From Candidatus Hermodarchaeota archaeon (GTDB lineage Archaea; Asgardarchaeota; Lokiarchaeia; Sigyniarchaeales; SOKP01), in NCBI GenBank assembly GCA_048885535.1, contig JBHLLO010000013.1, positions 1-60,459 of the forward strand: a DNA stretch of 60,459 nucleotides, written 5' to 3'. This document shows positions 42,235 through 60,247 of this stretch, piece after piece. The translations under genes and the position numbers were made by a program. The notes under the pieces are model-generated. The model did not search any database. It was not told the DNA's origin and worked only from the letters and a program-made list of their open reading frames with translations. Positions within the stretch are counted from its first letter, which is position 1. Every line of letters begins with the position of its first letter.

Positions 42235-43245
42235 GTGAGATTTAGTATTCTAGATTATAAGACATGTATTCAAGAGGGGGATAATTTATTAGAGAAGGGC
42301 GAACATATCAAAGCTGCTGAGGCGTATAGAAAAGCAATAGACATTCTGGATATGTCCATTAAATTAAATCCAAGGGATTTATTGGCTCGTGGAATTAAAT
42401 TTCGATTACTTGATCTACTCGATTCAAATAAATCACTTTCTAACTTAATAATCCCGTCCCTCATTTTACAAAAAATAGCTTATCTAAAGAAGATTAACCC
42501 TAAAGCTGAAGGTATTCTTAAAAGTTGTATTTACTGTAGCTCTTCCCTAAAAAAAAAGAAGACTAAACTCTGCCCTAAATGTGGTAAGGATTTAAGATCA
42601 GATGAAGCGATAATTTGGAACGAATTTAAACATGATGTTTACAAAAACATTTTAAATTTCGAATATCTGGCAAAATTTTTTGACCAAGATCTAGGAAATT
42701 CAGAAAAAAAACTAATTTATGAAAAGAAATTCGAAAATCTTCATCCAGATTTCGTATTTCCCAATATACATCAGGAACTCCTAATAATAGCAATTATTGG
42801 AATTCTTCAACTAACAAAAGTGATCCAAAGAATTTGGCAACCTGATCTATTAACTATTTATAGCATCCGTCAAATCTTTAATACCCTCTATCAAAGAGAA
42901 AACTTAATGGGAAAAAAATTGAATCTCCCTTGGGGTTTATTGAAAATTGAAGAAACCAACTTTACAGAAGAGTTTGAGGAAGAAGCTATTGAATCGAGAA
43001 GAGATTTAATAATCTCCTATAAAGATGCGTCACCAGTTTTTGATTATGAAACATATTTTTTCATACCATCTAGCGATCTTGATTATTCGCAACTCAATGT
43101 AGATAGGCCAGAAATTAATACAATTGGGTACACAAAGACTATTGAGAATAAAATCTCTGCTTTCGCCACGAAACTCAAAGATGGGGCATATATATATAAG
43201 ATTTATCTTCTTGAATCGAAAACAATTGAATTATTTAAACGATAA
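42235..43245 (+). CDS. Hypothetical protein with TPR-like N-terminus and zinc ribbon
   Basis: 'EGDNLLEKGEHIKAAEAYRKAI'; CIYC...CPKCG. Confidence 0.7.
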   Translation: MRFSILDYKTCIQEGDNLLEKGEHIKAAEAYRKAIDILDMSIKLNPRDLLARGIKFRLLDLLDSNKSLSNLIIPSLILQKIAYLKKINPKAEGILKSCIYCSSSLKKKKTKLCPKCGKDLRSDEAIIWNEFKHDVYKNILNFEYLAKFFDQDLGNSEKKLIYEKKFENLHPDFVFPNIHQELLIIAIIGILQLTKVIQRIWQPDLLTIYSIRQIFNTLYQRENLMGKKLNLPWGLLKIEETNFTEEFEEEAIESRRDLIISYKDASPVFDYETYFFIPSSDLDYSQLNVDRPEINTIGYTKTIENKISAFATKLKDGAYIYKIYLLESKTIELFKR

Positions 43246-43453: not shown

Positions 43454-43954
43454 TTAAACCAATTCTTTCTTCTCTGGAATAATTACAGATGGATCTTCCT
43501 TTATTTTATCCAATACGATCTGAGTTTTGATTTCCTCCACTCCGGGAAGATTCCTTAAATTCTCAATAAGTTCCATAGAATCACTATGGTCAAGACACTT
43601 AGCCATAACAAAAATTGGGTAATCTCCTGTTATAACATAAGCATATTTTACTTTTTCCATTGTCTCAATTTGACTTTTAACCTTTTCGAGGGGATGTGAG
43701 GAATTTACTCTAAGAGATGCAAGCACCATTTCTCGATATCCTAAATGTCTACAATCTATTAGTGTAATATATTGTTTAATCACTTGATCTTTTATAAGGC
43801 GGTCAATTCTTTTTTTAATTGAAGTAGCACTCATATCAACTTTCTCTTCGATATCACGAAGTGATGTTTTTGCGTTTAGTTGTAACATACGCAAAATTTC
43901 TTTGTCCGTTTCATCTAATTCAACTATTTTTGGCATGCTTGCCATGGTTAACAA
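43454..43954 (-). CDS. Lrp/AsnC family transcriptional regulator
   Basis: LDETDKEILRMLQLNAKTS HTH; ITGDYPI RAM domain; divergent from the hdr operon. The start may be a downstream ATG. Confidence 0.93.
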   Translation of the reverse strand: MLTMASMPKIVELDETDKEILRMLQLNAKTSLRDIEEKVDMSATSIKKRIDRLIKDQVIKQYITLIDCRHLGYREMVLASLRVNSSHPLEKVKSQIETMEKVKYAYVITGDYPIFVMAKCLDHSDSMELIENLRNLPGVEEIKTQIVLDKIKEDPSVIIPEKKELV

Positions 43955-44182: not shown

Positions 44183-44416
44183 GTGAAAAAATTGGCAGAT
44201 ATGACACTAAACGCTTTAGGAAAGAAATGTCCGATGCCTGTCCTCATGACCAAAAAAGAACTAAAGAACATGAGTTCAGGTCAAACACTTGAGCTTGTAG
44301 TTGACGATAAGGGTGCATTAAAAGATGTTCCTGCCTTGCTATCCAAAACTGGTGATGAATTGGTAGAAACAAAACAAGATGATGGTAGAATTACATTTGT
44401 GATTAAGAAAGCGTAG
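44183..44416 (+). CDS. tusA: Sulfur carrier protein TusA family
   Basis: LNALGKKCPMP motif. Confidence 0.92.
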   Translation: MKKLADMTLNALGKKCPMPVLMTKKELKNMSSGQTLELVVDDKGALKDVPALLSKTGDELVETKQDDGRITFVIKKA

Positions 44417-44439
44417 AAATTTTGAAGGAGAAAATTAGA

Positions 44440-44808
44440 ATGTCAACATATACTTTCATGATAGCTACTGAACCCTATAAGTTTGAAGCAGTTGACAGTT
44501 TGCTTAACTTATGTAAAGCAGTGTTACAAAAAGGCCATACTATTAAGGGAATATTTTTTTATGGTAGTGGAGTCTATAATATCAAGAAAGATATTGAAAC
44601 TGGTATTACAGTTCGTAATTTACCTGCACGTTTGGAAGAATTCATTAAAAAGAATCAGATTCCGGTAACGGGATGCACGACATGGATAGGATTGTGTGGA
44701 TTAAAAGAACAGTGTTTTATTGATGGGGCAAAAGAAGAAGGGTTGGGTGAACTATCTAATTGGACAGCAGAATCAGATAAATTAATAATGTTTGGAACAG
44801 GGGGATAA
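44440..44808 (+). CDS. dsrE: DsrE/TusD-like sulfurtransferase subunit
   Basis: GHTIKGIFFYGSGV, active-site-position Cys (VTGCTTW), GLGELS; ATG 44440 follows GGAG. Confidence 0.85.
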   Translation: MSTYTFMIATEPYKFEAVDSLLNLCKAVLQKGHTIKGIFFYGSGVYNIKKDIETGITVRNLPARLEEFIKKNQIPVTGCTTWIGLCGLKEQCFIDGAKEEGLGELSNWTAESDKLIMFGTGG

Positions 44809-44813
44809 AGAAA

Positions 44814-45182
44814 ATGATCAACTCGGTCGTAATAATAAGTGACCAATCTCCAGTCGGAAAGAACTCTGCCATTGAGGCCCTAAGGTTGGGGTCTGGATTT
44901 AGGGGATTAGGGGAAGAGATTGACTGCCAGGTGGTACTTATGGGTGATGCGGTTTACTTATTAAGTAAACGCGCAGATCCCTCTAAAGTTGGAGTCGATT
45001 CTTTTGATGAACCAATGGAAATGGCAGAATTGTCAGATTTAGAAATACTGGTACTTGATAGTGCAGTAGAGGATGCTGGACTAACTAAAGAAGATCTTAT
45101 AGAATACGAGGGATTAAAGATTATTAATCTCGAGGCTCTTACAGAAATAATAGATAATGCTGATACTATATTTAGGTTTTAA
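44814..45182 (+). CDS. dsrF: DsrF/TusC-like subunit
   Basis: SPVGKNSAIEALR, VLMGDAVY; lies between dsrE and dsrH. Confidence 0.8.
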   Translation: MINSVVIISDQSPVGKNSAIEALRLGSGFRGLGEEIDCQVVLMGDAVYLLSKRADPSKVGVDSFDEPMEMAELSDLEILVLDSAVEDAGLTKEDLIEYEGLKIINLEALTEIIDNADTIFRF

Positions 45183-45196
45183 GGTGGTGAACAAAG

Positions 45197-45538
45197 GTGG
45201 AGGAGGTTTTTGATATAGTTTATCTTTTCGGATTTAGCCCTAGATACGGGAATGAGTTAAGCCGATTAATACCGATTCTTAAAAATCAATCACAAAATGG
45301 AAAACAGATAGGTATAATATTCATTCATGATGGAGTTATAGGTGCTAATTCGAAAGGAAAAATGACTGATTCAATGAGTGAGATTAAGAGCTTAAAACTT
45401 AAGAGATATGTTATGATTCCTGATTTAACTGCAAGAGGTATTCCACTAGAGCATGTTCAAGAAGATGTACACCCCATAGAATATATGGAGCTTGTTGACA
45501 TAATAGAGAATAGCCATAAGGTTATCTCATGGATGTAA
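45197..45538 (+). CDS. dsrH: DsrH/TusB-like subunit
   Basis: FIHDGV, DLTARGI, Y.ELVD....KVISW. Confidence 0.85.
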   Translation: MEEVFDIVYLFGFSPRYGNELSRLIPILKNQSQNGKQIGIIFIHDGVIGANSKGKMTDSMSEIKSLKLKRYVMIPDLTARGIPLEHVQEDVHPIEYMELVDIIENSHKVISWM

Positions 45539-45672
45539 TCTGAAAAGAAGAGGAAATTATTAGAATTAATTTAAAAATATTTTGAAAAAACAAACAAATC
45601 ACGGTTAACAAATAGTTAACTCAAATATTAAGAAAATCAAAACAAACAAATCTAAAAAAAAAGGTGTAAAAT

Positions 45673-46089
45673 TTGGTAGAAAAAATGAATTTTATTGTAA
45701 AAGATAAATCTTTTGAAAAATTTATGATGATGACAATCTTGGGAACCACTGGGAGTGCTATGGATGTTGAGATGAATTTCTTTTTCACTTTTTGGGGATT
45801 AAACCTCTTAAAGAAAAAATTTAAGCCTAAGGTTGCTGGGATGCCAGCACCCATGAAAGGAATGGCAGCTGGGATGTTCAGGAAAAAATTAAAGAAATTT
45901 GGTATGGAAGATCCATGGGCCTTGATCAAAGAAGCTATTGACGAGGGAAAAATGAAACTATATCCATGTCAAATGACAATGGATTTAATGAACATTAAAA
46001 GAGAAGAAATGTGGGATTTTGTAGAAGATCCCATTGGTGCTGCTGGATTTATAGAAATGTCTGATGGTGGCCAAGTAATTTCATTATAA
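45673..46089 (+). CDS. DsrE2-like (DsrE/DsrF family) sulfur carrier
   Basis: FFFTFWGLNLLKK, YPCQMTMDLM, GAAGF. Confidence 0.85.
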   Translation: MVEKMNFIVKDKSFEKFMMMTILGTTGSAMDVEMNFFFTFWGLNLLKKKFKPKVAGMPAPMKGMAAGMFRKKLKKFGMEDPWALIKEAIDEGKMKLYPCQMTMDLMNIKREEMWDFVEDPIGAAGFIEMSDGGQVISL

Positions 46090-46127
46090 ATTTTTTTTTT
46101 ATTTTATATTTAAGAGAGGATGATAAT

Positions 46128-46688
46128 ATGTCTGATGTGGAAGAAGAACAACATCGGGAATTTATGATTGATGAGGATTTTGACTCAGAATTTTTTAGAA
46201 ATATTGAACGCAGATCAAATATTTTTAAATGTATCCAATGTGGTACTTGTACTGCAAGTTGTGAAAGTGGAAGATGGACCGCATTAAAAACACGTTCAAT
46301 TATAAGAAAAGTTGTCTTAGGAGATTTATCGGTATTGAAAGATCCTGATATATGGTTGTGCACAACATGTTATCAGTGTTATGAACGATGTCCGCGAGAT
46401 GTAAGACCTACAGATGTTATTATGGAATTAAGAAACTATGCTACTAAATTAGGGAATATTTCTCCTAATCATAGAGCTGTCGTAGGGTATTTGAAGCAAT
46501 TTGGTCATGCTGTACCGATAAATGATGAAATTAGAAAGAGAAGAGTCGAGTTAGGTTTAGAAGAATTACCCCCTACAGCATTTAAGTTTAAGCAAGAGGG
46601 GGATGATAAAGATTTAAAAAAAATAGAAGAAAAAATGTTTGATTTACCTCCAGTTAAGGAGGAAGAAAAGAAAAAAGAGGAGGCATAA
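46128..46688 (+). CDS. hdrC: Heterodisulfide reductase subunit C
   Basis: CIQCGTCTASC and WLCTTCYQCYERCPR; GHAVP. Confidence 0.93.
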   Translation: MSDVEEEQHREFMIDEDFDSEFFRNIERRSNIFKCIQCGTCTASCESGRWTALKTRSIIRKVVLGDLSVLKDPDIWLCTTCYQCYERCPRDVRPTDVIMELRNYATKLGNISPNHRAVVGYLKQFGHAVPINDEIRKRRVELGLEELPPTAFKFKQEGDDKDLKKIEEKMFDLPPVKEEEKKKEEA

Positions 46689-46691
46689 AAG

Positions 46692-47606
46692 ATGGCAAAA
46701 GAAAAAACATTTGCTTTCTTCCTTGGTTGTATTATGCCCAACCGTTATCCTGCGATTGAAAAGTCAACGAAATTTGTTATGGAAAAGTTAGGATATGAGA
46801 TTTTGGACATGGAAAGAGCGACATGTTGTCCTGCACCTGGTGTATTTCGCTCATTTAACAAATTTGATTGGATGGTAGCAGCAGCGAGAAATCTTTGCAT
46901 TGCTGAAAAGATGGATGCAGATATTTTAACAGTATGCAATGGATGCTTTGGTACACTACAGGAAGTAAACAAACATCTTAAAGAAAATGAAGAACATCGA
47001 GAACAGGTAAATGAAAAGTTGAAAGAAATCGGAGACTATGAGTTTCAAGGTAAAATCAACGTTCGACATGTCGCTGAAGTTTTAGGATATGAGGTTGGAC
47101 CTTGGGGGATTGAAGATCATATTGTAAGGAAATTGAATGCTAAGGCGGCTGTTCATTATGGTTGTCATTTCTTGAAACCAACAAGAATACGAGAAATTGA
47201 AAATTCTGAAGGACCAACAATCATCGAAGAATTTGTGGAAGTGTTAGGTATACAATCAGTTAGGTTTAAGGAACAACTTACCTGCTGTGGTGCGGGAGGT
47301 GGTGTTAAAGCATATTCAGGGGATGCAAGTATGACGATTTTTGCCGAAAAAATGAAAAATATCAATGAGGTAAACCCAGATTTTATTTTGGATATTTGTC
47401 CTTTTTGCCACCTACAATTTGAGACAGGACAGGATTATTTAAACAAAAATAAAGCATGTAATTATGATTATCCTGTAATTCACCTTTCTCAGTTAGTTGC
47501 GTATTGTTTGGGTATGAACCATGAATTTGTAGGATTACAATATCAGTTAATGGGGAGGGAATACATTTTTGGTCAAGCAAAAACTAAGAAAGAAGAGGTA
47601 ATTTAA
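46692..47606 (+). CDS. hdrB: Heterodisulfide reductase subunit B
   Basis: FLGC, TCCPAPG, CNGC, HYGCH, CCGAGGG, CPFC (two intact CCG domains). Confidence 0.95.
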   Translation: MAKEKTFAFFLGCIMPNRYPAIEKSTKFVMEKLGYEILDMERATCCPAPGVFRSFNKFDWMVAAARNLCIAEKMDADILTVCNGCFGTLQEVNKHLKENEEHREQVNEKLKEIGDYEFQGKINVRHVAEVLGYEVGPWGIEDHIVRKLNAKAAVHYGCHFLKPTRIREIENSEGPTIIEEFVEVLGIQSVRFKEQLTCCGAGGGVKAYSGDASMTIFAEKMKNINEVNPDFILDICPFCHLQFETGQDYLNKNKACNYDYPVIHLSQLVAYCLGMNHEFVGLQYQLMGREYIFGQAKTKKEEVI

Positions 47607-49637
47607 ATGACAGTAAAAGAAGAAAAAGCAAAGGATACAGAAGAGGCTCAAAACATGTTAGAGACTGAAGAAAATGAACCTCGAATTGGAGTATTTGTAT
47701 GTCATTGTGGTCATAATATAGCTGGGACTGTGGATGTTGCTGAAGTAGCAGAATATGCAAAAGGACTGCCTAATGTTGTAAAAGCAGAGCACTATATGTT
47801 TATGTGCAGTAAACCTGGTGTTCAAATGGTTAAAGATTCAATTAAGGAATTAGGTGTGAATAGAACTGTAGTCGCATCCTGTTCAAAAAATCAACATGGA
47901 AGAACTTTTGCAAATGCCATCCAAGAGATGGGTTTAAACAAGCATCGTCATCAACAAGTCAATATTAGAGAATTCAATAGTTGGGTTCATCAAAAAGAGA
48001 AAGAGAAAGCAACTAAAAAGGCAGAACGCCTAATTGAGGCTGGAGTTAATAGAGCACGAAAGTTAGAAGATGTTGAAACTCGTAGAATTCCTACCACTAA
48101 AGCTGCGTTGGTAATTGGTGCTGGAATTGCAGGTCTTCGAGCAGCTTATGATCTAGCGGAATTAGGAATTCCAGTTTATTTAGTTGAACGAAACTCAACC
48201 ATAGGAGGACATATGACTCAATTGAATAAAACATTTCCAACCTTAGAATGTCCGCAATGTTCGATATCTCCACTTACTAATGGAGTTGCGAATCACCCCT
48301 TAATAGAACTTTATACTAATGCTCAAATTAAAGAAGTGGAAGGTTCAATGGGTAATTTTGAGGTGGAAGTTGAAATAAAACCTCGTTATGTTAAAGATAA
48401 TTGTACTTCATGTGGGGAATGTGCAATTTATTGTCCTGTAGAAGTTCCGAGTGAATGGGATAAAGGAATGTCTATAAGAAAAGCAATATATAAAGCGTAT
48501 CCTCAAGCAATTCCTGCTACATATGTTAGAGACAAGAAAAATTGTATTGAATGTAATGCATGTATTAATATATGCCCAGTTCAAGCAGTTGATTTTTCAA
48601 TGGAATCAGAGATAAAGAGATTTAAAGTGGGTTCTATAATAGTAGCAGCAGGATATGATGAATATGATCCTTCTGAAATTGAAGCTTATCATTATAAACA
48701 AGAGGGTTATGAAAACGTCATAACGCAATTACAAGTTGAACGAATGCTTGCTCCTGGTTCATTAACTAATAGTCAAGTACTAAGACCTTCTGATGGTAAA
48801 ATACCAAAGAATATAGTTATGATTCAATGTGTTGGAAGTAGAAACGACCAAGTGGGGAATGAATATTGTACAGGAGTTTGTTGTAAATTTGCGATTAAGA
48901 ATGCCCGGATTATAAAAGAAATGTATCCTGATTCAAATGTTACTATATGTTATATAGACGTAAGGACTCCTGGATTAAATTTTGAGGAACTCTATAAGTC
49001 AGCTCAAGAAGTTGGAGTACGCTTTATACGAGGAAGACCCTCTGAGATCCTTCGAGATCCTATCTCTGGAGAATTAAGGGTCATAGTTGAAGATACATTA
49101 AGTCAAACCCCCTTAAAGTTAAAAGCAGATTTAGTGGTATTATCTGCTGCTATGGTTCCACCGGAAGGAATTGGTCCTTTAGGTTCAAAATTACATGTTC
49201 TTCGATCAAAGGAAGGATTTTTAAAAGAATTTCATATAAAAATGAATCCTACTCTAAGTAGTAAAGGGGGTATATTTTTAGCTGGGGCAATTCAAGGTCC
49301 AAAAGACATTTCAGAGTCTGTAGCTCATGCTGGAAATGCAGCAGCAATAGCAGCTGCTCCTTTAGTAAAAGGATATATTGAAAAGGAGATGTTAATCCCA
49401 TACATAGATTTAGATTTATGTGTAAAATGTGGACTCTGTAAAACTGTATGTGCTCCTGCTGCGATTGATATAAATGAGGATGGAATCCCAATGATTAATG
49501 AGATAGCGTGTAAATCATGTGGTATGTGTATGCCCGCGTGTCCAACAGGAGCTATTCAATTATTAAATTTTAGTGATGAGCAGCTATTTGATGAAATTGT
49601 TGCTGTATCTGGAGGTGTTGTGTGCGAAAATGACTGA
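47607..49637 (+). CDS. hdrA: Heterodisulfide reductase subunit A (flavin-bifurcating type)
   Basis: GVFVCHCG, GAGIAG, KTFPTLEC, inserted ferredoxin domain, QCVGSR, CTGVCC, C-terminal ferredoxin. Confidence 0.96.
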   Translation: MTVKEEKAKDTEEAQNMLETEENEPRIGVFVCHCGHNIAGTVDVAEVAEYAKGLPNVVKAEHYMFMCSKPGVQMVKDSIKELGVNRTVVASCSKNQHGRTFANAIQEMGLNKHRHQQVNIREFNSWVHQKEKEKATKKAERLIEAGVNRARKLEDVETRRIPTTKAALVIGAGIAGLRAAYDLAELGIPVYLVERNSTIGGHMTQLNKTFPTLECPQCSISPLTNGVANHPLIELYTNAQIKEVEGSMGNFEVEVEIKPRYVKDNCTSCGECAIYCPVEVPSEWDKGMSIRKAIYKAYPQAIPATYVRDKKNCIECNACINICPVQAVDFSMESEIKRFKVGSIIVAAGYDEYDPSEIEAYHYKQEGYENVITQLQVERMLAPGSLTNSQVLRPSDGKIPKNIVMIQCVGSRNDQVGNEYCTGVCCKFAIKNARIIKEMYPDSNVTICYIDVRTPGLNFEELYKSAQEVGVRFIRGRPSEILRDPISGELRVIVEDTLSQTPLKLKADLVVLSAAMVPPEGIGPLGSKLHVLRSKEGFLKEFHIKMNPTLSSKGGIFLAGAIQGPKDISESVAHAGNAAAIAAAPLVKGYIEKEMLIPYIDLDLCVKCGLCKTVCAPAAIDINEDGIPMINEIACKSCGMCMPACPTGAIQLLNFSDEQLFDEIVAVSGGVVCEND

Positions 49638-50082
49638 ATGTGAATATATCGAGCCTGAAGTGCTCGAGAAGGTGGAAAATGTTGTAGTATTTATGTGTAA
49701 TGAGTGCGGCCAAGGTTCTGCAAATACAGCTGGTGTAGCTCGAATGGCTTATAATCCAGCTATACGCATAATTCGGGTTCAATGTACAGGTCAAGTAGGA
49801 CCAATCCAAATTATGGACGCATTGAGTAATGGTGCTGATGCAGTTGCATGTGTGGGATGTTGTTTAGGAGCATGTCATTTCTTTAATGGTAATATTCTAT
49901 CAATGCATAGAATTAAGCTTATGAAGAAGTTATTCAAGGAGTTAGGCTATAGTGACCAGTTTATTAACCAGTATACTTCACGAGCTGCAGAAGGTGAAAC
50001 TGCCGTCGGTGATTTTGAAGATATTGTAGAGAGACTAGCAACAGCAATTAGAGAGGAGGCGACATTCAAAGATGGATGTTAA
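49630..50082 (+). CDS. mvhD: MvhD/FlpD [2Fe-2S] subunit
   Basis: FMCNEC, IRVQCTG, GADAV, GCCLGACHF..GN; likely start is ATG 49630, overlapping the hdrA end. Confidence 0.85.
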   Translation: MTECEYIEPEVLEKVENVVVFMCNECGQGSANTAGVARMAYNPAIRIIRVQCTGQVGPIQIMDALSNGADAVACVGCCLGACHFFNGNILSMHRIKLMKKLFKELGYSDQFINQYTSRAAEGETAVGDFEDIVERLATAIREEATFKDGC

Positions 50083-51307
50083 AGTTTTTCAATTCAATGG
50101 ATGTAATAAATGTTTTAATGAGACAATTTTATTAAAATCAGATTCAAGCTATAAAATTGGGTTTATATCCAATCCTAGTAATTGGAAAGAAGAGAAAACT
50201 GATATCTCTATAATTACGGGCTATTTGATGCCAGAGGATAAAGATACTTTAGATAAAATCATAAGAAACTCAACGAAGGTAATTGCTTATGGAGATTGTA
50301 CTACCACAGGAGGCGTTTTTGCCTTATCAAATCAACGGGGCCATAATGTAACGCCTTTAAGAAAGTTTAATGAAGGAGTTATGAATGTGTTTGGCTGTTT
50401 AGGTGAAATAGAAGAACTTGAAGCATTACTTAAGGGCAAAGATTTACCAAAATTAAATAATTTATGTATTGTATGCGGAAGAAAGAAAACTTGTGACTAT
50501 TTAGAAGAAGTAAAACGTCAAATAGAATTAGATGACAAAGAGAAGTGTTTTAACGATCTTGGATTCCTTTGTAATGGGTTTATAGCAAAAGAATGTAAAG
50601 AACGCTGTATTGATTACAATGCACCTTGTCGTGGCTGTAAACCAATCGTCGATCGTTCAGGAACTAGAATGCTCGGAATGTTTGGAACATTAATGGGAAA
50701 TATTGAAGTCGCTACAGAGCATTCAGAAAAAGGAGCAACAGATAAACTAGCAGATAATGAAGACGATGTGACTGCAAGTTTACCAGATATTGTTGGTAAC
50801 TTCTTTCGATTTACATTATCCACCTCTGGATTACCTAAAGGTAGAATTAATTCTTCAGGAAGTTTATTGGAAGATGTGTTTACAGGCAGATTAATAGAGG
50901 AATTACCTTTAATTACAGGTTTATTAGGAGGAGATCATTCAATTTCTTTAACTCTTAAAGTCTTAGAGACATATGAACAAGCCAATAATATAGAAGTAAG
51001 TGAGACTACAAAACAATATCGAAAAGAATTATTAGATTTGGAAACCGAATCAATAGAAATAATCGCATCTAGAGACCCCAAAAGGTATAAAGAGGTAACT
51101 GACAAAATACGGAAAATTGCAGGTAATATGAATTTATCTAATCTCTATTATGGTGGATTTAAAGCAAAGATCAATGAGAATGATAATTTTGAAGAATACA
51201 AAACCCATGTTTTTGATGTGGTTGAAGGAACCTATAAAAATGGTTCAATTGAATTCACGATTGATTCAATAGGAATTGTAAAAGAAATAAAAATTAAAGA
51301 GGGATAA
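50072..51307 (+). CDS. Divergent MvhG-like Fe-S protein with C-terminal extension
   Basis: GCNKC, AYGDCTTTGG, FGC, CIVC, CFNDLGFLCNG...C...C....PCRGC. Confidence 0.7.
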   Translation: MDVKVFQFNGCNKCFNETILLKSDSSYKIGFISNPSNWKEEKTDISIITGYLMPEDKDTLDKIIRNSTKVIAYGDCTTTGGVFALSNQRGHNVTPLRKFNEGVMNVFGCLGEIEELEALLKGKDLPKLNNLCIVCGRKKTCDYLEEVKRQIELDDKEKCFNDLGFLCNGFIAKECKERCIDYNAPCRGCKPIVDRSGTRMLGMFGTLMGNIEVATEHSEKGATDKLADNEDDVTASLPDIVGNFFRFTLSTSGLPKGRINSSGSLLEDVFTGRLIEELPLITGLLGGDHSISLTLKVLETYEQANNIEVSETTKQYRKELLDLETESIEIIASRDPKRYKEVTDKIRKIAGNMNLSNLYYGGFKAKINENDNFEEYKTHVFDVVEGTYKNGSIEFTIDSIGIVKEIKIKEG

Positions 51308-51309
51308 AT

Positions 51310-53778
51310 GTGAGTTTTGAATTATTAAGAGCTGAAATTATAGATGCTGGTCTTTGTCAAGGTTGTGGTTTATGTGCGGGATCATGCAAACATATTGAGA
51401 TGGAAGTAAAGCGCCCATCCCTTAAAGATTATTGTATTTTAGAAAGAGATGGTCAAGACTGTGGAAAATGTTATCAAATTTGCCCTCAGGTTATTCAGAA
51501 AAACTTTGAAGAAAGGGAACCATTAGCAATATATTCATTAAGGAGTAAAAATCCTGAAATTCTTTCTAAAGCTGCGAGTGGAGGTTTTATCACCACTTTC
51601 GTTAAGGAACTTCTAGAGGATCAGATGCTAAAAGAGATTGTAATGGTCCAAGAGGAAGAGGAAAAACCTATTGCAGAAGTTGTTTCAAATCCTGATGAAG
51701 TAGTTGAGAAAGCAGGAGTAGTTTATGGTAGATCTGGAGTTTTAGAAAGATTAGTAGAAATTACCGGTGAAACTTTTGATCAAATAGGTATTGTTGGTGT
51801 ACCCTGTGAAATGCGTGGAGCGGCTGAAATCGAAGAGGGAATGAAACGAGATATCCTAAAAATTGGATTATTCTGTAATTCACAAATTCGTACTGAGGAA
51901 ACAGATAAAGGTTTGGTATGTTCTCCATGCTGTAATGGATGTCCTTCGGGAGTTAATGCCCAAGGATATATTTCATTAATACGACAAGGTAAGTATCAAG
52001 ATGCTGTTAATTTAATTAGAGAAAACAATCCATTACCTTCAATATGTGGTCGTATTTGCACTAACGAATGTGAGCATGGATGTACATTGATCGGAGATGA
52101 TCATCCCGTCGCTATTCGAGAATTAAAAAAGTTTGTAACAGAATGGGAGATCGAACAAGCAAAAAAAGATGTAAAAAACATACCAAAATTGAAGAAGAAT
52201 ACCAAAAAAGTGGCAATTATTGGATCTGGTCCCGCAGGTTTGACAGCTGCTTATTATTTGAGAAGAATGGGATACGCACCAACTATTTTTGAAAAAACCG
52301 AACAGACAGGGGGTATGTTACGATTTGGAGTTCCCCAATTTAGATTACCGAACTATGTCTTGGATTACGATGTTGAACGGATAATAGAATCTGGTATTAA
52401 ACTCGAACTGAATAAACCATTAGGACCTGAAATGACCATCGAAGATTTAAAAAATAGTGGTTTTAAGGCAATTTTTATTGCAACAGGTCAATATAAACCT
52501 CGAACGCTACATTTAGAAGGAGAGGAGCTTCCAAATGTATTTGTTGCGATCACTTTTTTAATGGATAGAAAATATCGTTATTGGCAAAATGAAGAAGAAT
52601 TTAAGGGAAAAACTATAGGGATAATTGGAGGTGGCCCTGTTGCTGTTGATGTTGCTCAAACAGCATTAAGGTTAGGTGCAGAAAAAATTCATTTAGTGGA
52701 TATCATGTCAGAAGAACAATTAGAATTAGTTCTAAAGGATATTCCTGAAAATGAAATGCCTTTTATGCTTTATCACTTCAAAACATCTACTTCAAAAATT
52801 ACGCAAAATGATGATGGAAAATTAGTTTTGAATTGTTATAACATAGAATGGGGAAGCCCTGATGAAAATGGCAGGAGACCATTAAATAAAGTTGAACAAT
52901 CGGAATTTGAAATTACTGTTGATGATATCGTAATAGCAGTTGGTCAAGCTGTCGATTTTGACCAGATTGATATTGCTACTAATAATGAATTAGAAAAAGA
53001 ACACAATAAAATCAAGGTAAATGAAATTACTTTTGAGACGAATATCACTGGTGTTTTTGCTGGGGGAGATATTATTAACAACTCCAAAGCAGTGGCTATC
53101 GCCGCAATAGCACATGGAAAAGAAACGGCTATCTCAATTGATAGATATTTAAAAGGAGAGAATTTAATAGATGGAAGATATAAAAAAGCAAATTCATTCT
53201 TCACTGGACCTAAAAAACCTCCAAAAGATTATTCTTTAAAACCAGAATCATTAGAGGAAGCAACTGAAGAAGTAAGTTGGTCTTTTGAAGAAATTGATAA
53301 GATATTTAATGAAGATATGGCTTTACAAGAAGCACGTAGATGTTTAAGTTGTAATCATTTCTGTTCTCACTGTCAAGATTTTCCAGCGATTTACTCAGAT
53401 ATCACTGCGGGGGATGTTGGTTCACAAAAGGGATATACTACAGTTGTAATTTGGACTGAGCGTGGAAAGAATCTTGTCGAAAAAGCTATTGAAAAAGGAT
53501 TATTTGAACAAGGTAAAGTGAATGAAGAAGAACTGAAAACCGCAATCAAATTAAAGTCAAAGAGAGAGCTTATGACTTTTGAAAAGACCCCCAGACAACA
53601 AGTATTAGATTATATCTCGCTACAAGGACCTAGTAGAATAAGTGATATAGCAAAAAAGACTGGAATCGATACAAAGAAGGTTAGATATGAAGCCCTTCGT
53701 CTAGTCCAGTTGATGGAACTAGAAATGAAAGCAGATCCAGAGATGGATGAACCACTATTTTCAATTATATGTGAATAA
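51310..53778 (+). CDS. FrhB/FdhB-like protein with inserted GltD/NfnB-like flavoprotein module and C-terminal winged helix
   Basis: N-terminal ferredoxin, ASGG, GVPC, GLFC (FrhB N); CPSGVN...NPLPSICGRIC, GSGPAG, GGGPVAVD, EARRCLSC (GltD); CSHCQDF...SDITAG...TERG (FrhB C); HTH tail. Confidence 0.85.
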   Translation: MSFELLRAEIIDAGLCQGCGLCAGSCKHIEMEVKRPSLKDYCILERDGQDCGKCYQICPQVIQKNFEEREPLAIYSLRSKNPEILSKAASGGFITTFVKELLEDQMLKEIVMVQEEEEKPIAEVVSNPDEVVEKAGVVYGRSGVLERLVEITGETFDQIGIVGVPCEMRGAAEIEEGMKRDILKIGLFCNSQIRTEETDKGLVCSPCCNGCPSGVNAQGYISLIRQGKYQDAVNLIRENNPLPSICGRICTNECEHGCTLIGDDHPVAIRELKKFVTEWEIEQAKKDVKNIPKLKKNTKKVAIIGSGPAGLTAAYYLRRMGYAPTIFEKTEQTGGMLRFGVPQFRLPNYVLDYDVERIIESGIKLELNKPLGPEMTIEDLKNSGFKAIFIATGQYKPRTLHLEGEELPNVFVAITFLMDRKYRYWQNEEEFKGKTIGIIGGGPVAVDVAQTALRLGAEKIHLVDIMSEEQLELVLKDIPENEMPFMLYHFKTSTSKITQNDDGKLVLNCYNIEWGSPDENGRRPLNKVEQSEFEITVDDIVIAVGQAVDFDQIDIATNNELEKEHNKIKVNEITFETNITGVFAGGDIINNSKAVAIAAIAHGKETAISIDRYLKGENLIDGRYKKANSFFTGPKKPPKDYSLKPESLEEATEEVSWSFEEIDKIFNEDMALQEARRCLSCNHFCSHCQDFPAIYSDITAGDVGSQKGYTTVVIWTERGKNLVEKAIEKGLFEQGKVNEEELKTAIKLKSKRELMTFEKTPRQQVLDYISLQGPSRISDIAKKTGIDTKKVRYEALRLVQLMELEMKADPEMDEPLFSIICE

Positions 53779-53822
53779 ATAGAATTTTATTAAAAATTAA
53801 GAATAAGTTAAGGAGAAAGACC

Positions 53823-54062
53823 ATGAAATTTGATCAAGAATTAAATGTATGTGGATTAGTCTGCCCCGTTCCAGCGCTTAAAACAAAGAAGGAATTAATG
53901 AAAATGCGCCCTGGAACTGTTTTAAAGGTTATTACTGACTATAAACCTGCATCTGAGAGTGTTCCTAGAGATTTAGCGAAACAAACCAAACATAAACATT
54001 TAGGAACAGAATTCATTGATGACGATGAGCTATGGTATATATATTTTGAGGTAGTAAAATAA
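53823..54062 (+). CDS. tusA: Second TusA-family sulfur carrier
   Basis: LNVCGLVCPVP motif. Confidence 0.9.
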   Translation: MKFDQELNVCGLVCPVPALKTKKELMKMRPGTVLKVITDYKPASESVPRDLAKQTKHKHLGTEFIDDDELWYIYFEVVK

Positions 54063-55409: not shown

Positions 55410-57233
55410 TTAGTTTTTAATTCTTTTTCTAATACTTATTAATGATATTAATCCAACCATTAGAAAAACGCTGCTGATAATTAAAAATGTATCAAATCCG
55501 GGTATTCCTCCAGGGGAGACTGCTGCAGAAACTAATCTATATTCGAAGATAACTATGCTTTCATCATTTAATAATTGAACTGTTTTTAAAATACCGAGAA
55601 TGGCATCATATGTATATTTTAATTGATAGTCTTCAACGGCAGTATTATTTTGAGTGACAACTAGTCCAGATAACTGACTTCCGGGAGCATAGGAACGTCC
55701 TACTAAATAATAATAAGGCGGAAACGGTGTAACCCACATCCAACCTCCCCAGAATCCATCTTCAGGATCACAATATAGACCAAAGCTCGTGGTATAATTT
55801 GGTTCTGATCCATAACTATGTGAAGTCCAATCCCATACATCAGTATATAAATACCATAGGTTTCCGGATAATAAAATGTCAGTAACATGTCTTTTCATTT
55901 TAACACCAACTTCAGTGCAACCTGGTCCAAAAAAGGATTCTATATCAGTTTCCCAAGTACCTCCTAGTACATTTTCTAACTCGACATCATTTAGTTTGGT
56001 TACTCTCCATTCGAATTCACTTCCAGCGGGAAAGCTAAACTCCATGAGAATTACTTCAAAGATAACTGTACCAAGCGAATTTTTAATTTGGAAAAGATCT
56101 GTCACGCCAAGATCTTCATCAAAAGTGTATATAGCTTCATAAGATTCTACATCAGAACTGGATACTGTTATTGTACTACCTGAAGCACTAGTTCCAGCAA
56201 AATATGAAAGTTCCTCTAAGTATGTCACGACAGGTGTAGGAATCATCCAAACAGATGGATTCCAGGTATTTCCAGTTGGATCCATAGGTAGATTATACCA
56301 AACATCATCTCGATCCGGAACACCACCATGCAATAATTCTTTATCCTTCCAATTCCATCCATCTACATATAATCGATACCAATCAGCAGTAGGATGATTA
56401 AGAACATCTTCTATTTCTATTTTTGACTTATTCCCAGCCTCAGATGGGCTATTTAGTGCCCACCAACAGTATGTATTCAAATCTGTATCCCAATTACCTC
56501 CAAATACATCTCCTAATTCCGCGACATTTAATTCAGTTACAATCCAGTTATAAGTTTCCGCGGTCCAAATTTTCAACTCAAAACCCCATAATTCGAAAAT
56601 AATTGTATCTGCATCGTTCTTAATCACAAAATTCTTGATGACACCTGTATTTACATCATAAATCCAATTTACTTCATAATCAGCTATATCTGTTCCAGTG
56701 TAATTAATAATATTATCATAGGCTGTGAATAATGACGCATAGGACAAATTTGCCAAATATAAATCTACGGGTATTGCTACCATCCATACACTAGGATTCC
56801 AGAGTTCTCCCGAGGAGCTCATAGGGAGGTTATATGTATAATCATCTCTTACAGGAGCTCCAAAAGAAGTGGTTTTATCAATCCAACCCCACCCATCATA
56901 AGTAAATTGCCACCAATCACTCAAGCTAGGATGAACTGTAATATTTTCAATTGCAAATTTGGACTTCTGACCAAGAGCAGCCGGTGCTACATATCCATTC
57001 CACCACATATAATCTCCTACATCAGTTACCCAGTCTCCTCCAAACACATTATTTAATTCAGTAGTATCAAATTCTGTACATACGAATTCAAAATAATCTG
57101 TAATTTCAAATCCAAGAGTATAATCACCCACTGCATTACTCTTAGGAGTATGCGATTCTACTCCTTGAAATATTGCACTTATTAGAAAAAGGTTTAAGAT
57201 TACTATGTAAACTAACCATTTTTTTGATTTCAT
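55410..57233 (-). CDS. Surface protein with three ~185-aa tandem repeats and Loki-CTERM anchor
   Basis: Signal peptide; three 'T.....EL..V[FL]GG.W.TD' repeats; GGIPGF-TM-RKRIK. Confidence 0.85.
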   Translation of the reverse strand: MKSKKWLVYIVILNLFLISAIFQGVESHTPKSNAVGDYTLGFEITDYFEFVCTEFDTTELNNVFGGDWVTDVGDYMWWNGYVAPAALGQKSKFAIENITVHPSLSDWWQFTYDGWGWIDKTTSFGAPVRDDYTYNLPMSSSGELWNPSVWMVAIPVDLYLANLSYASLFTAYDNIINYTGTDIADYEVNWIYDVNTGVIKNFVIKNDADTIIFELWGFELKIWTAETYNWIVTELNVAELGDVFGGNWDTDLNTYCWWALNSPSEAGNKSKIEIEDVLNHPTADWYRLYVDGWNWKDKELLHGGVPDRDDVWYNLPMDPTGNTWNPSVWMIPTPVVTYLEELSYFAGTSASGSTITVSSSDVESYEAIYTFDEDLGVTDLFQIKNSLGTVIFEVILMEFSFPAGSEFEWRVTKLNDVELENVLGGTWETDIESFFGPGCTEVGVKMKRHVTDILLSGNLWYLYTDVWDWTSHSYGSEPNYTTSFGLYCDPEDGFWGGWMWVTPFPPYYYLVGRSYAPGSQLSGLVVTQNNTAVEDYQLKYTYDAILGILKTVQLLNDESIVIFEYRLVSAAVSPGGIPGFDTFLIISSVFLMVGLISLISIRKRIKN

Positions 57234-57396: not shown

Positions 57397-57747
57397 TTAG
57401 AGCCAAGAGATAATTCTTGAATTCGAAACTAGAAGATCAACAAGTTCTTCATATTCAATTTTGCTGATTTTATCCACTATATCATTTGGATTGATTCCAC
57501 GGGCTTTAAGATCGGGAAGAAGAATATAGAAAGAAATTGGTAAATCTAGAAGCGTAGATAATTGGGGATTTACTTCAGGCTTTTTAGTAAGACCTATAAC
57601 GCCATCATGCATAAAAACAAATGTGATCTCTGCTCCCAATTTTTTCTGCTGATATATGATATTGATAAGTTTGATAAAAGGTTTATAACTATTTATACTA
57701 TAGCCAAAAAGGTAAATTATATTTTTAAGGTCTTCCAATTCAATCAC
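57397..57747 (-). CDS. dsrH: DsrH/TusB-like subunit, second copy
   Basis: FMHDGV, DLKARGI, YEELVD...IISW. Confidence 0.85.
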   Translation of the reverse strand: MIELEDLKNIIYLFGYSINSYKPFIKLINIIYQQKKLGAEITFVFMHDGVIGLTKKPEVNPQLSTLLDLPISFYILLPDLKARGINPNDIVDKISKIEYEELVDLLVSNSRIISWL

Positions 57748-57753
57748 ATACTC

Positions 57754-58119
57754 TTAATATTTAAAACAAAAATCATTATCTAATAATAATTCAGAGATAG
57801 TCTTATAATCTATAACCTTTAAGTGTTGATAAGGAATTAAGTCATTTCTGTCAAGATCTAATGCTATAAGATCTTCATGTGCTACTAGAATGGGCAATTC
57901 CGATAATTCAATTAACCTAATCATATCATCAAGCGAATCCATGTTCAAGCCAGAAGGATTTACATTTTTATTAAGAAATAAAATTGCATCTCCTAAAAAT
58001 AATATTTGACAAGCCTCCACATCTCCCATACTTATAATTCCAGCAGCTAGTCTAATTGATTCAACAGCCGAATTTTTTCCAAAGGGAGAATCTTCACAAA
58101 TAATTAATATTGAAGTAAT
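57754..58119 (-). CDS. dsrF: DsrF/TusC-like subunit, second copy (probable ATT start)
   Basis: Frame extends 30 codons above the annotated ATG: ITSILIICEDSPFGKNSAVESIRL, aligning with the paralog INSVVIISDQSPVGKNSAIEALRL; GGAGGTGA 6 nt upstream. Confidence 0.8.
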   Translation of the reverse strand: MTSILIICEDSPFGKNSAVESIRLAAGIISMGDVEACQILFLGDAILFLNKNVNPSGLNMDSLDDMIRLIELSELPILVAHEDLIALDLDRNDLIPYQHLKVIDYKTISELLLDNDFCFKY

Positions 58120-58125
58120 ATTTCT

Positions 58126-58503
58126 TCACCTCCCTGGTCCAAAAAATATAACTCGATCAGAATTACCAATTAATTCTGAAAGACCACCTAATCCATCTAA
58201 ACATGCATTCTCGATAAAATCTGATTCTTTTAATCCTGTTATACTTACCCAGGTACTACATGCAGCTACATTAGCATTACTTTTCTCAATGAATTCTTGA
58301 AGCTTTTTCGGTAAATCTCGAATTGAACTAAATAGTTTCCTATTTTTGTGAATGTTATATACCCCACTCCCAATGAAGAAAATACCTAATACCTGATGTC
58401 CTTTTTTAATAATAGCTTCTCCTAGATTAATCACTGTATCCATTGCTTCATATTTATATGGTTCAGCAGCAATGATAAAACAAAACTTTAGCATATTAAA
58501 CAC
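58126..58503 (-). CDS. dsrE: DsrE/TusD-like subunit, second copy
   Basis: AEPYKYEA, GHQVLGIFFIGSGV, VAACSTW, GLGGLS. Confidence 0.85.
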   Translation of the reverse strand: MFNMLKFCFIIAAEPYKYEAMDTVINLGEAIIKKGHQVLGIFFIGSGVYNIHKNRKLFSSIRDLPKKLQEFIEKSNANVAACSTWVSITGLKESDFIENACLDGLGGLSELIGNSDRVIFFGPGR

Positions 58504-58825: not shown

Positions 58826-60247
58826 ATGCAAAAGGTATATAAAATGTCAGACATCTTTAATGGAAGAATTTTATTGCAACCAAATGAGATTCCAGAATAT
58901 TGGGTAAATATTTTACCAGATTTGCCCTCCCCTATGACACCCTTACTAAATCCAATGGATAAGAAACCAATTCCTCAAGAAATGGCATTTGCTATTTTTC
59001 CGCAAGAATGTGTATTGCAAGAGCTTTCTTCTGATCCTTTTATTCCTATCCCTAAGGAATTGAGAGAAATTTTTGCTAGTACATATCGCCCTAGTCCACT
59101 TCATCGTGCTTTTAGATTAGAGAAAGATTTAGGTATTAAAGGAGATAAAATCAAAATTTTTTATAAAAATGAGTCATGTTCTCCTACTGGATCACATAAA
59201 CCTAATACAGCTATAGCCCAAGCATATTATGCAAAAAAGGAAGGATTAGAAGAATTAGTTACAGAAACAGGTGCGGGGCAGTGGGGTTCTGCGCTAGCAT
59301 ATGGGTGTCGTTTGTACAGTCTAAATTGTACGGTATATATGGTAAGAGCAAGCTTTTATCAGAAACCAGGGAGAAAAGTTTTGATGAGATCATTTAATGC
59401 TGAAATATATGCGAGCCCTTCTAATTTAACTGATTCTGGAAAAATCTTTTTGGAAAAAGATTTAGAACATCCAGGGAGTTTAGGAATAGCGATATCTGAA
59501 GCACTAGAGCACAGTATGAGGAGTGATAAAATAAAGTACTCACTTGGAAGTGTTGTAAATTTTGTATTATTACACCAGACTATCATAGGGCAAGAAGCAA
59601 AGATTCAACTCGCTAAAGCTGGTATTGAAAGCCCTGATATTATAATTGGTTGTATGGGAGGTGGTTCAAATTTTGCTGGTTTGATGATTCCATTTGTTAA
59701 AGATAAATTAAATGGGATTAATCAAAACATGGAATTAATCGGTGTGGAACCTCGAGCATGTCCAAGTGTATCTAAAGGAGAGTATAGATGGGATTACGGA
59801 GACTCTGCGATGAAAGGACCTATTGTAAAAATGCACACTTTAGGCCACACCTTTATCCCAAGCCCAATTCATGCAGGAGGATTAAGATACCATGGAATAG
59901 CTCCCATTATTTCAATTTTACATAATAATCGAATTATTGAGACCGTTATGCATCATCAAACGGAAGTAATTAGTGCCGGTCTTCAATTTGCTAAAACTGA
60001 AGGAATTCTACCTGCTCCTGAAAGTGCACATGCTATAAAAGAAACAATTAACCAAGCATTGAAAGCTAAAGAAAATAATGAAAAGAAGGTCATCCTTTTC
60101 AATCTTAGTGGACATGGTTTTTTTGATTTGCTAGCATACGAGGAATTCATGAACGGAAATTTAAAAGAATTTGAATTACCTGACGGCGAGATTCACTCAA
60201 ACTTAACCTCAAAAGAAATGCCAAAAATCGATGAATCACAACTTTAA
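58826..60247 (+). CDS. trpB2: Tryptophan synthase beta chain, TrpB2 type
   Basis: SPTGSHKPN (PLP Lys), TETGAGQWG, GGGSNFAG, IHAGGLRYHG, PAPESAHA, NLSGHG; the start may be ATG 58844. Confidence 0.95.
   Translation: MQKVYKMSDIFNGRILLQPNEIPEYWVNILPDLPSPMTPLLNPMDKKPIPQEMAFAIFPQECVLQELSSDPFIPIPKELREIFASTYRPSPLHRAFRLEKDLGIKGDKIKIFYKNESCSPTGSHKPNTAIAQAYYAKKEGLEELVTETGAGQWGSALAYGCRLYSLNCTVYMVRASFYQKPGRKVLMRSFNAEIYASPSNLTDSGKIFLEKDLEHPGSLGIAISEALEHSMRSDKIKYSLGSVVNFVLLHQTIIGQEAKIQLAKAGIESPDIIIGCMGGGSNFAGLMIPFVKDKLNGINQNMELIGVEPRACPSVSKGEYRWDYGDSAMKGPIVKMHTLGHTFIPSPIHAGGLRYHGIAPIISILHNNRIIETVMHHQTEVISAGLQFAKTEGILPAPESAHAIKETINQALKAKENNEKKVILFNLSGHGFFDLLAYEEFMNGNLKEFELPDGEIHSNLTSKEMPKIDESQL

Follow-up and report, generated by a model that had tools for sequence, protein, structure and literature searches.

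The subject of this study is a twelve-gene operon on contig JBHLLO010000013.1 of a Candidatus Hermodarchaeota archaeon, in which methanogen-type genes for heterodisulfide reductase (hdrABC) and mvhD are joined to a set of genes for sulfur carriers of the TusA and DsrE families. The whole stretch of 60,459 nt that was analysed is referred to here as the window. The twelve open reading frames (ORFs) lie on the + strand at positions 44183–54062, in the order tusA-dsrE-dsrF-dsrH-dsrE2-like-hdrC-hdrB-hdrA-mvhD-mvhG-like-frhB::gltD-tusA, and are closely spaced (intergenic distances of -11 to 44 nt), the single exception being a gap of 134 nt ahead of dsrE2. The genome is AT-rich, with a GC content of about 30%, and the GC skew is positive throughout the 44–54 kb region. 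Families were assigned by Pfam and NCBIfam profile searches of the window ORFs, and matches were obtained for each of the twelve proteins, so that the co-directional run and the gene families named in an earlier note on this DNA could be confirmed. The same note had described the run as devoid of certain genes, and indeed no intact [NiFe] large subunit, formate dehydrogenase (Fdh), DsrAB, DsrC or GcvH/LbpA-type (lipoate-binding) gene was found in it. The [NiFe] large-subunit family PF00374 has no match in the window, and its matches in the genome are confined to contigs C57 and C11; two GcvH-family (GCV_H) matches both lie on other contigs.

The first five genes encode sulfur carriers. TusA1 (44183–44416, 77 aa; PF01206, 1.6e-24) carries the CPxP motif as C16-P-M-P, and Cys16 is kept in 50/50 sequences. 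It is followed by a DsrE/TusD-like subunit (44422–44808, 128 aa; PF02635, 1.2e-13), a DsrF/TusC-like subunit (44814–45182, 122 aa; PF02635, 7.9e-13; TIGR03010, 31.4 bits, under the cut-off) and a DsrH/TusB-like subunit (45197–45538, 113 aa; PF04077, 1.5e-11; TIGR03011, 55 bits with a cut-off of 49.2). The DsrH protein of the window has no cysteine at all; Cys20 of DsrH is conserved in sulfur oxidisers. Cys85 of DsrE, invariant in 51/51 sequences, aligns with the active-site Cys78 of Allochromatium vinosum DsrE (2hy5_A), and the cysteine at the DsrF position (Cys38) is kept in 50/51. The DsrE2-like (DrsE_2) protein (45673–46089, 138 aa; PF13686, 4.4e-22; NF047629, 58 bits, under the cut-off of 210) could also start at an ATG at 45685, giving 134 aa, and its single cysteine, Cys99, is present in all 57 of 57 sequences. 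A selenocysteine (Sec) read-through upstream of dsrE2 was considered and rejected, as the reading frame is shut by TAA/TAG. The second carrier of the TusA family, TusA2, closes the operon (53823–54062, 79 aa; PF01206, 1e-17), with a C14-P-V-P motif in which Cys14 is kept in 49/49 sequences, Cys10 being kept in 43/49. This set resembles the TusA-DsrEFH-DsrC pathway of A. vinosum and the TusA-TusBCD-TusE pathway of E. coli (2HY5, 2D1P; PMC3397948) in combining TusA with E-F-H paralogues and in the matching DsrE cysteine. It differs in that DsrH is Cys-free, that HdrB would be the acceptor, and that DsrC/TusE (PF04358) gave no match in the genome. The same is true of NIR_SIR sulfite reductases and YeeE/TsuA; these and the other genome-wide negatives rest on an assembly that is 91.6% complete.

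Other carrier genes occur in the genome. A search by tblastn had suggested that all its DsrE genes lie in the window, a view that had to be dropped when Pfam added single DsrE-family genes beside TusA paralogues on two further contigs: a DsrE-like-TusA pair beside a LysR regulator on C36 (L094 1504–2113), and a separate TusA-DsrE-like-cysteine desulfurase (IscS-like)-NifU_N cluster on C44 (L095 5425–8095). Within the genome, only the E/F/H triplets are confined to the window. A second dsrE-dsrF-dsrH triplet is located 3.3 kb downstream of the operon (57397–58503, - strand); its products are 36–48% identical to those of the first, the active-site cysteine of DsrE is retained and DsrH again has no cysteine. 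It is divergent from a gene for a TrpB-like pyridoxal phosphate enzyme (58826–60247, + strand; NF009057, 630.7 bits, cut-off 366), and is also present downstream of the operon in loci L007 and L057.

HdrC (46128–46688, 186 aa; TIGR03290, 176.9 bits, cut-off 160) and HdrB (46692–47606, 304 aa, with two CCG domains; TIGR03288, 375.9 bits, cut-off 345.15) both exceed the curated cut-offs of the CoB-CoM (coenzyme B-coenzyme M) equivalog models, and HdrB matches the methanogen protein 8rvv_B with E = 5e-93. The ten cluster cysteines of HdrB are kept in 67/67 sequences and the eight of HdrC in 63/63. HdrA (47607–49637, 676 aa) has the five-domain architecture of the methanogen type and scores 643.7 bits to 5odc_A across residues 23–665, which take in the N-terminal, TrxR-FAD, inserted and C-terminal ferredoxin domains. 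Its K431 and E378 align with K409 and E356 of 5odc_A, residues whose roles are described in PMC12054007, and all of its cluster cysteines are kept in 57–59 of 59 sequences. The score to the HdrA2 model (738.6 bits) falls under the cut-off of 1100 because MvhD is encoded separately here. That gene (PF02662, MvhD/FlpD, 7.2e-32) most likely begins at the ATG at 49630 (49630–50082, about 150 aa) rather than at the GTG at 49573 that opens the ORF; in tblastn mapping, relatives begin to align at about residue 15–25 of the long ORF. Its seven cysteines are kept in 50–51 of 51 sequences, and the operon's HdrA and MvhD are both cysteine forms with open frames. By contrast, the match of HdrA to the sHdr protein sHdrA (6tjr_A) covers only residues 342–586, with 132 bits. 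Judged by these comparisons the HdrABC of the operon is of methanogen type, not sHdr, and its union with a TusA/DsrEFH/DsrE2 set, as first remarked in the earlier note, holds. The operon shares with the sulfur-oxidising sHdr-LbpA system, in which TusA and DsrE3 act as carriers (PMC11094781), the company of Hdr-type genes with TusA and DsrE-family sulfur transferases. It departs from it in having a full bifurcating-type HdrA where sHdrA is short and lacks ferredoxin domains, a single hdrC-hdrB pair where sHdr has two, no LbpA in the locus, MvhD, MvhG and FrhB, and an anaerobic host.

The HdrB of the operon is only 33–34% identical to its nearest paralogues in the same genome, which, taken with its methanogen-type scores, makes this the most methanogen-like Hdr that the genome encodes. 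At least eight hdrA paralogues are present; some of them appear split in tblastn (C50, C10) and may hide Sec codons.

The gene after mvhD encodes a 411-aa protein of a family that public records list as 'hypothetical protein' or 'F420-reducing hydrogenase gamma subunit'. Its N-terminal part (residues 1 to ~262; 50072–50857; Oxidored_q6, 4.7e-11) is an MvhG-type small-subunit domain. All 13 cysteines fall within residues 11–189 and are kept in 54/54 sequences, and there is none after residue 189. An AlphaFold model of the whole protein, built from 32 sequences, reached a pLDDT (predicted local distance difference test) of 79.9; its best Foldseek match was 5odi_E, the MvhG of the Mvh-Hdr complex (E = 1.2e-11), and VIA gave Z = 16.1 to 5odc_E. 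In VIA the last third of the protein matched [NiFe] large subunits as well. When that third (residues ~263–411; 50858–51307) was folded alone (pLDDT 80.7) and compared by VIA with 48,161 chains, all 15 rows with Z >= 9 were [NiFe] large subunits or their complex-I/Mbh/Mbs (NuoD-type) relatives, including FrhA (6qgt_A, 12.5), MvhA (5odc_F, 11.2), MbsL (6u8y_l, 10.3) and HucL (9.0), with the next row falling to 5.7. The top alignments cover about 145–150 residues at a root-mean-square deviation of 2.4–3.0. Foldseek found nothing for the isolated segment at E <= 0.001, its top rows (E 0.4–0.9) still being large subunits, so the assignment rests on VIA-align. On these models the gene is an MvhG fused to a dead, Cys-free stump of MvhA of about 150 residues, which should occupy the large-subunit face of MvhG. 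The description of the operon in the earlier note as hydrogenase-less is thus apt in that no intact large subunit is encoded, but it needs amending, since the fusion makes the operon hydrogenase-derived.

Compared with MvhAGD-HdrABC of hydrogenotrophic methanogens (5ODC/5ODI), the operon has the same HdrA, HdrB, HdrC, MvhD and MvhG fold, all of the cluster ligands and the K409/E356 equivalents. It differs in that MvhA is reduced to the relic of 150 residues on MvhG, that FrhB::NfnB has been added, that sulfur-carrier genes flank it, that ComA was not found, and that the donor is probably not H2. In terms of the group 3c [NiFe] hydrogenase MvhAGD, the small subunit with its three Fe-S clusters and the [2Fe-2S] of MvhD are present, whereas the NiFe-binding Cys motifs are absent. 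A [NiFe]-hydrogenase-derived pair of small and large subunits that has lost the NiFe site and is associated with sulfur is also found in MBS, the membrane-bound sulfane sulfur reductase of Pyrococcus furiosus (6U8Y; PMC7684303); here, however, the complex is predicted to be soluble and the relic is far smaller, and as MbsL does not stand out among the large subunits by its Z score to the relic, no specific kinship with MBS is indicated.

An MvhA supplied from elsewhere in the genome might join in trans and restore an ordinary H2-dependent Mvh-Hdr complex, a possibility which the earlier note had raised. Two genes for [NiFe] large subunits do exist. On C57 (L004 1125–10352), hypF-hypD-hypE precede mvhG (406 aa)-mvhA-hdrC-hdrB, the large subunit scoring 455.9 bits with the VhuA model, and neither hdrA nor mvhD is present in the cluster; the same mvhA-hdrB-hdrC-mvhG set occurs in Promethearchaeum syntrophicum MK-D1 (DSAG12_03951-54). 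On C11 (L005 8083–13641), an hdrA::mvhD fusion (818 aa) is followed by mvhG (230 aa) and a large subunit, without hdrBC. The existence of these genes and the lack of hdrA and mvhD from the C57 cluster speak for the idea. Each of the two hydrogenases nevertheless has its own small subunit, the large-subunit face of the operon's MvhG should already be filled by the relic, at least four other hdrA-mvhD pairs in the genome could serve C57, and the operon carries a dedicated donor in FrhB::GltD. When the MvhA of C57 was compared with 88 related loci no match was found, so no large subunit is hidden beside the operon in relatives. It is therefore very unlikely that either hydrogenase completes the complex.

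The donor module is encoded by the next gene (51310–53778, 822 aa; FrhB_N 2.6e-11, Fer4_20 4.3e-24, Pyr_redox_2 1e-25, FrhB_C 2.3e-19), whose product comprises an N-terminal ferredoxin part with 2x[4Fe-4S], an NfnB/GltD cassette and a winged-helix-like C-terminal tail. The cassette (residues ~208–687, nt 51931–53370) is a clean insertion between the adjacent cluster cysteines C207 and C688, as seen by alignment with plain FrhB homologues of ~350 aa from the distant Asgard family f31, which pass straight from C207 to C688; the tail is retained in both Lokiarchaeia and f31. Its closest matches in the Protein Data Bank are NfnA 9n5u_A (9e-87), NfnB 4ylf_B (6.2e-71) and 5jca_L (1.5e-64), and it includes Fer4_20 (PF14691) and Pyr_redox_2 (PF07992) with the motifs GSGPAG for FAD and GGGPVA for the dinucleotide. 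The GxGxxA pattern leans towards NADPH (PMC12054007), and the cofactor is probably best left as NAD(P)H. Coenzyme F420 is probably also made, as the genome encodes CofH (469 bits, cut-off 374), next to a CofG-like gene, and CofE in two copies. An NAD(P)H/F420H2 donor module, as proposed in the earlier note, is consistent with these gene contents. The possibility that C-terminal cysteines act as swinging arms in the manner of DsrC was also considered, given Cys821 of FrhB::GltD (43/48) and Cys169 of MvhD (48/51), and was set aside because both are missing in MK-D1-type and f31 homologues.

The nearest biochemical precedent, by analogy, is Elp-Hdr of Methanothermobacter marburgensis (PMC12350162; 8RVU), in which a truncated, cofactor-less FdhA and the F420H2-oxidising, FrhB-like ElpB replace Mvh and feed the MvhD-type ElpC and HdrA. 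In both ElpABC-HdrABC and the putative complex described here, a FrhB/FdhB-type flavoprotein would feed Hdr via an MvhD-type subunit, and what was once the catalytic subunit is a truncated, cofactor-less scaffold. The differences are that the scaffold is here derived from a hydrogenase (MvhG plus the MvhA relic) and not from FdhA, that an NAD(P)H cassette is nested in the flavoprotein in Lokiarchaeia, and that the substrate is CoM-S-S-CoB there and would be carrier-bound sulfur here.

The distribution of the operon was followed by mapping the twelve proteins onto related Promethearchaeota loci by tblastn, counts being limited to loci that reach far enough. All twelve genes occur in the same order in 33 of the 36 related loci spanning the operon, with the presence of single genes ranging from 43/45 (TusA2) to 57/57 (HdrB), and the arrangement is far from chance. 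The loci include those of P. syntrophicum MK-D1 (L065), L. ossiferum (L067) and a Sigynarchaeum (L061). Exceptions are a split MvhG-like gene in L011, a split HdrA in L020, the absence of TusA2 from L052 and L055, a cut FrhB::GltD in L070, and the lack of tus/dsr genes upstream in L062. In the Sigynarchaeum locus, FrhB::GltD (L061 14608–17052) has an in-frame stop other than TGA, reflecting a pseudogene or an assembly error, and was excluded from the FrhB alignment. The HdrB search returned 67 Asgard loci before reaching the HdrB of Methanobacteriaceae at 47–52% identity. Of the 400 genomes of the phylum that were scanned, those with a full-length MvhG-like gene comprise 24 of the 41 others in the genus, members of two further families in the order, a single genome of family f16 and seven of f31, where the identity is 32–38%.

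The f31 loci are informative because the gene order has been rearranged. In six of them the order is hdrC-hdrB-hdrA-mvhD-mvhG-like-frhB; tusA2 comes directly after frhB in four (L086-L088, L090), and in L089 it is found upstream on the other strand. Two of the loci (L086, L087) have dsrEFH after tusA2, and an extra DsrE-family gene adjoins hdrC in all three loci with listed ORFs (L086-L088; Pfam-confirmed in L086). The persistence of the link between carriers and Hdr despite this complete reordering indicates that the linkage is selected. The earlier note had named beforehand an unlinking of the tus/dsr genes in relatives as what would count against its proposal; the carriers proved to be linked, both within Lokiarchaeia and in the reordered loci. 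A gene for an Lrp/AsnC-family regulator, divergent from tusA1 in the window (43454–43954, - strand; Pfam AsnC_trans_reg, HTH_24 and HTH_AsnC-type), has a homologue next to the operon in almost every related locus, its position differing in MK-D1-type loci and f31, and an Lrp-type regulator is found near the f31 loci. Promethearchaeum genomes (MK-D1, L065 2421–6367, - strand; L068) have a second hdrC-hdrB-hdrA-mvhD set, 32–45% identical and divergent beside tusA1, which in MK-D1 corresponds to DSAG12_01135-01138 and is followed by a 4Fe-4S ferredoxin.

TusA2 is the best-conserved carrier, with 54–61% identity to its f31 homologues and a mean column identity (82%) similar to that of HdrB (77%). 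Since it is also the most constantly linked, it was chosen as the partner of HdrB and HdrC in a complex model, with three runs and three controls; a meeting of HdrB with a carrier had been foreseen in the earlier note. The complex of HdrB, HdrC and TusA2 scored 0.64 (runs of 0.64, 0.01 and 0.64), while the best of the controls scored 0.00; in the calibration set, 116 of 157 solved complexes attained that mark of 0.64, as did 2 of 215 mismatched pairs. The pLDDT of the partner was >= 84 and the runs agreed in >= 80% of contacts. The predicted contacts join TusA2 residues 15–30, 50–56 and 77–79 to HdrB residues 123–139 and 164–180, and in the model the TusA2 helix following Cys14 touches HdrB 164–180, a stretch that comes just behind the cluster ligand C158. 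As a prediction, short of a demonstration, the model speaks for binding of TusA2 to HdrB.

It could be argued that the two halves of the operon act separately and are merely co-regulated, with the Tus/Dsr proteins serving tRNA or cofactor thiolation of the TusABCD type and Hdr reducing a low-molecular-weight heterodisulfide. In the MK-D1 table of Imachi et al. 2020 (PMC7015854), the KEGG labels are tRNA 2-thiouridine synthesizing proteins A, D and C, and in those supplements the Hdr part is catalogued, the flanking tus/dsr genes being annotated only as tRNA-thiolation proteins. The score of HdrB above the CoB-CoM equivalog cut-off and the Cys-free DsrH fit such a division. TusB likewise has no cysteine. 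Set against this are the linkage that outlasts the complete reshuffle between Lokiarchaeia and f31, where TusA2 sits immediately after frhB in most loci, the matching conservation of TusA2 and HdrB, and the contact favoured by the complex model. TusE/DsrC was not found in the genome, and the DsrE and DsrF proteins score under the equivalog cut-offs of the TusD and TusC models. ComA (PF02679) likewise gave no match in the genome, although a control with M. acetivorans also gave none, and the search covered neither the cysteate route to CoM nor CoB synthesis; the question of CoM/CoB synthesis raised in the earlier note is addressed only to that extent. On balance, separate action appears unlikely.

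Selenium rather than sulfur might be the cargo, with the carriers supplying selenophosphate or selenoproteins and Hdr reducing Se-S adducts. TusA1 matches YedF selenium-metabolism models (46.1 and 38.3 bits), under their cut-offs, and the genome has a SelD gene (contig C80 11143–11997, - strand; 186.4 bits, cut-off 125) with one in-frame TGA, indicating that the organism probably uses selenocysteine. In M. maripaludis, TusA and TusD transcripts rise by 4.5–4.6 log2-fold under selenium depletion (PMC11097638). Countering these points, no selD, selA/B or other Sec-machinery gene was found among the window ORFs, HdrA and MvhD of the operon are cysteine forms, and nothing in it is specific to selenium, so a selenium route is highly improbable.

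The interpretation that we favour, and to which we give about an even chance of being right, is a soluble, nickel-free, bifurcating Hdr that is fed by NAD(P)H and/or F420H2 and acts on sulfane sulfur bound to the carriers. The analysis shows the gene content, its conservation, the folds and the retained cofactor ligands, together with a TusA2-HdrB interface at the level of a model; how the subunits assemble, which donor and substrate they use and in which direction they work is what we infer, as follows. The complex would consist of HdrABC, MvhD, MvhG fused to the MvhA stump, and the FrhB-type flavoprotein, which in Lokiarchaeia has the nested NfnB/GltD cassette. Hydride from NAD(P)H and/or F420H2 would enter at FrhB::GltD, and electrons would pass by its Fe-S clusters to the MvhG-type clusters, the [2Fe-2S] of MvhD and the FAD of HdrA. 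There the pair would split, one branch leading to ferredoxin and the other passing HdrC to reach the pair of non-cubane clusters in HdrB. HdrB would act on sulfane sulfur, or on a di- or trisulfide, borne by the co-encoded carriers, and would reduce this substrate to thiol and sulfide. Sulfur may be relayed from TusA1 to Cys85 of DsrE in DsrEFH, then to DsrE2 and to TusA2, which would dock on HdrB. The reverse direction, confurcating and persulfide-forming, is chemically possible.

Several observations weigh against this interpretation. The 47–52% identity of HdrB to the Methanobacteriaceae proteins means that a small, CoM/CoB-like heterodisulfide may still be its substrate, and ComA is only one of two known routes to CoM. 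The operon is accessory, since 17 of the 41 other genomes of the genus lack it, four of which are 99–100% complete. In the relative G135 (locus L092), the FrhB gene specifies just 142 aa, with the ferredoxin part and the winged-helix tail, and the flavoprotein part is missing. As to the complex model, one of the three runs scored only 0.01, and the job used custom alignments and three chains, unlike the calibration set. The predicted interface on HdrB is not enriched in strictly clade-specific positions (2/19 vs 27/304, p = 0.52); a looser cut-off, chosen post hoc, gave 8/19 vs 65/304 (p = 0.03). Finally, with a potential of around -270 mV the S0/H2S couple is far poorer as a high-potential acceptor than CoM-S-S-CoB (about -140 mV), which makes bifurcation from NAD(P)H to ferredoxin and sulfur thermodynamically tight.

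Physiologically, such a complex may serve as a sulfur electron sink, as the earlier note suggested, or may equally well serve the assimilation of sulfur and the supply of persulfides. A specific alternative, possible though rather doubtful, is that the same complex works in sulfur assimilation or biosynthesis and not as an electron sink. It could do so by a reductive release of sulfide or thiol from sulfane sulfur on the carriers (derived from cysteine desulfurase, thiosulfate or polysulfide) for the synthesis of cofactors, tRNA and Fe-S clusters. Alternatively it could run in reverse, with electrons from reduced ferredoxin and from sulfide or thiol confurcated to NAD(P)+ or F420, making persulfides in a very reduced habitat; the confurcating direction is thermodynamically favoured. 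Assimilation is suggested by the L092 cluster of G135 (15009–19821), in which a ThiF-family E1 (PF00899, 1.6e-71), TusA and an Aminotran_5, cysteine-desulfurase-type gene (1.1e-77) lie between dsrE2 and dsrEFH, and by the regulator that travels with the operon, as the Lrp/AsnC family typically senses amino acids. The lack of a match to sulfite reductases in the genome points the same way. In the published MK-D1 culture, the orthologues DSAG12_01139-01151, of which 01145-01150 correspond to the predicted complex, are transcribed at ordinary levels (182–348 reads per kilobase per million mapped reads, RPKM, vs 346 for mvhA; PMC7015854, Tables S3 and S4 of the supplement). In a figure legend, a Nerearchaeum preprint of 2025 (10.1101/2025.07.22.663070) proposes that Hdr acts on TusA/DsrE-bound persulfides, and it likewise frames this as reductive sulfur assimilation. 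Opposed to assimilation are the separate cluster on C44, which would serve biosynthetic sulfur mobilisation, the heavy investment that a 10-kb, 12-gene bifurcating machine would represent in sulfidic sediment, and the absence of a thiolation enzyme from the locus and of a DsrC/TusE match from the genome. The accessory distribution of the operon and the small driving force that sulfur reduction offers to bifurcation also lean to the assimilatory side, but none of these pointers is decisive. Given the Nerearchaeum legend, the idea of Hdr acting on TusA/DsrE persulfides is not wholly new; the 12-gene operon is not described in that preprint, and no paper describing it was found in a literature search, the reach of which did not extend to bioRxiv supplements.

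A bolder and improbable version supposes two sulfur-reactive sites, one at the HdrB clusters served by TusA2, and another in the pocket between the proximal cluster of MvhG and the nickel-free relic, used as MBS is thought to use its equivalent site. The complex would then physiologically be a confurcating maker and breaker of persulfides, passing electrons from reduced ferredoxin and from sulfide or thiol to NAD(P)+ or F420 and loading sulfane sulfur onto TusA/DsrEFH. If true, it would give strict anaerobes an oxidant-free route to persulfides, and would explain why the four cysteines of the proximal cluster are kept in 54/54 sequences though no hydrogen chemistry is left. Catalysis at the proximal cluster is pure speculation.

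Elsewhere, the window encodes three small GTPases of the Ras/Arf family (224–1789, 5183–6751 and 22576–23472, all on the - strand) and a RING-finger protein (6876–7454), which together are typical of the eukaryote-like genes of Asgard archaea. Two proteins near the operon, of 607 aa (55410–57233) and 336 aa (42235–43245), have no family match and are not syntenic in relatives.

The role of HdrABC in non-methanogens, including Asgard archaea, is a long-standing question, and the genes are usually booked as a hydrogenase-linked Mvh-Hdr. For the most methanogen-like Hdr of Lokiarchaeia, the operon offers a concrete candidate substrate, persulfidated TusA2 or DsrE-family carriers, and a concrete candidate donor, NAD(P)H and/or F420H2, with orthologues in cultured strains such as MK-D1. 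The fused relic also indicates that an mvhG-type gene need not mean a hydrogenase, which matters for the surveys of hydrogen metabolism that enter models of eukaryogenesis, and the proposed activity would bear on hydrogen-sulfur syntrophy scenarios for Asgard archaea.

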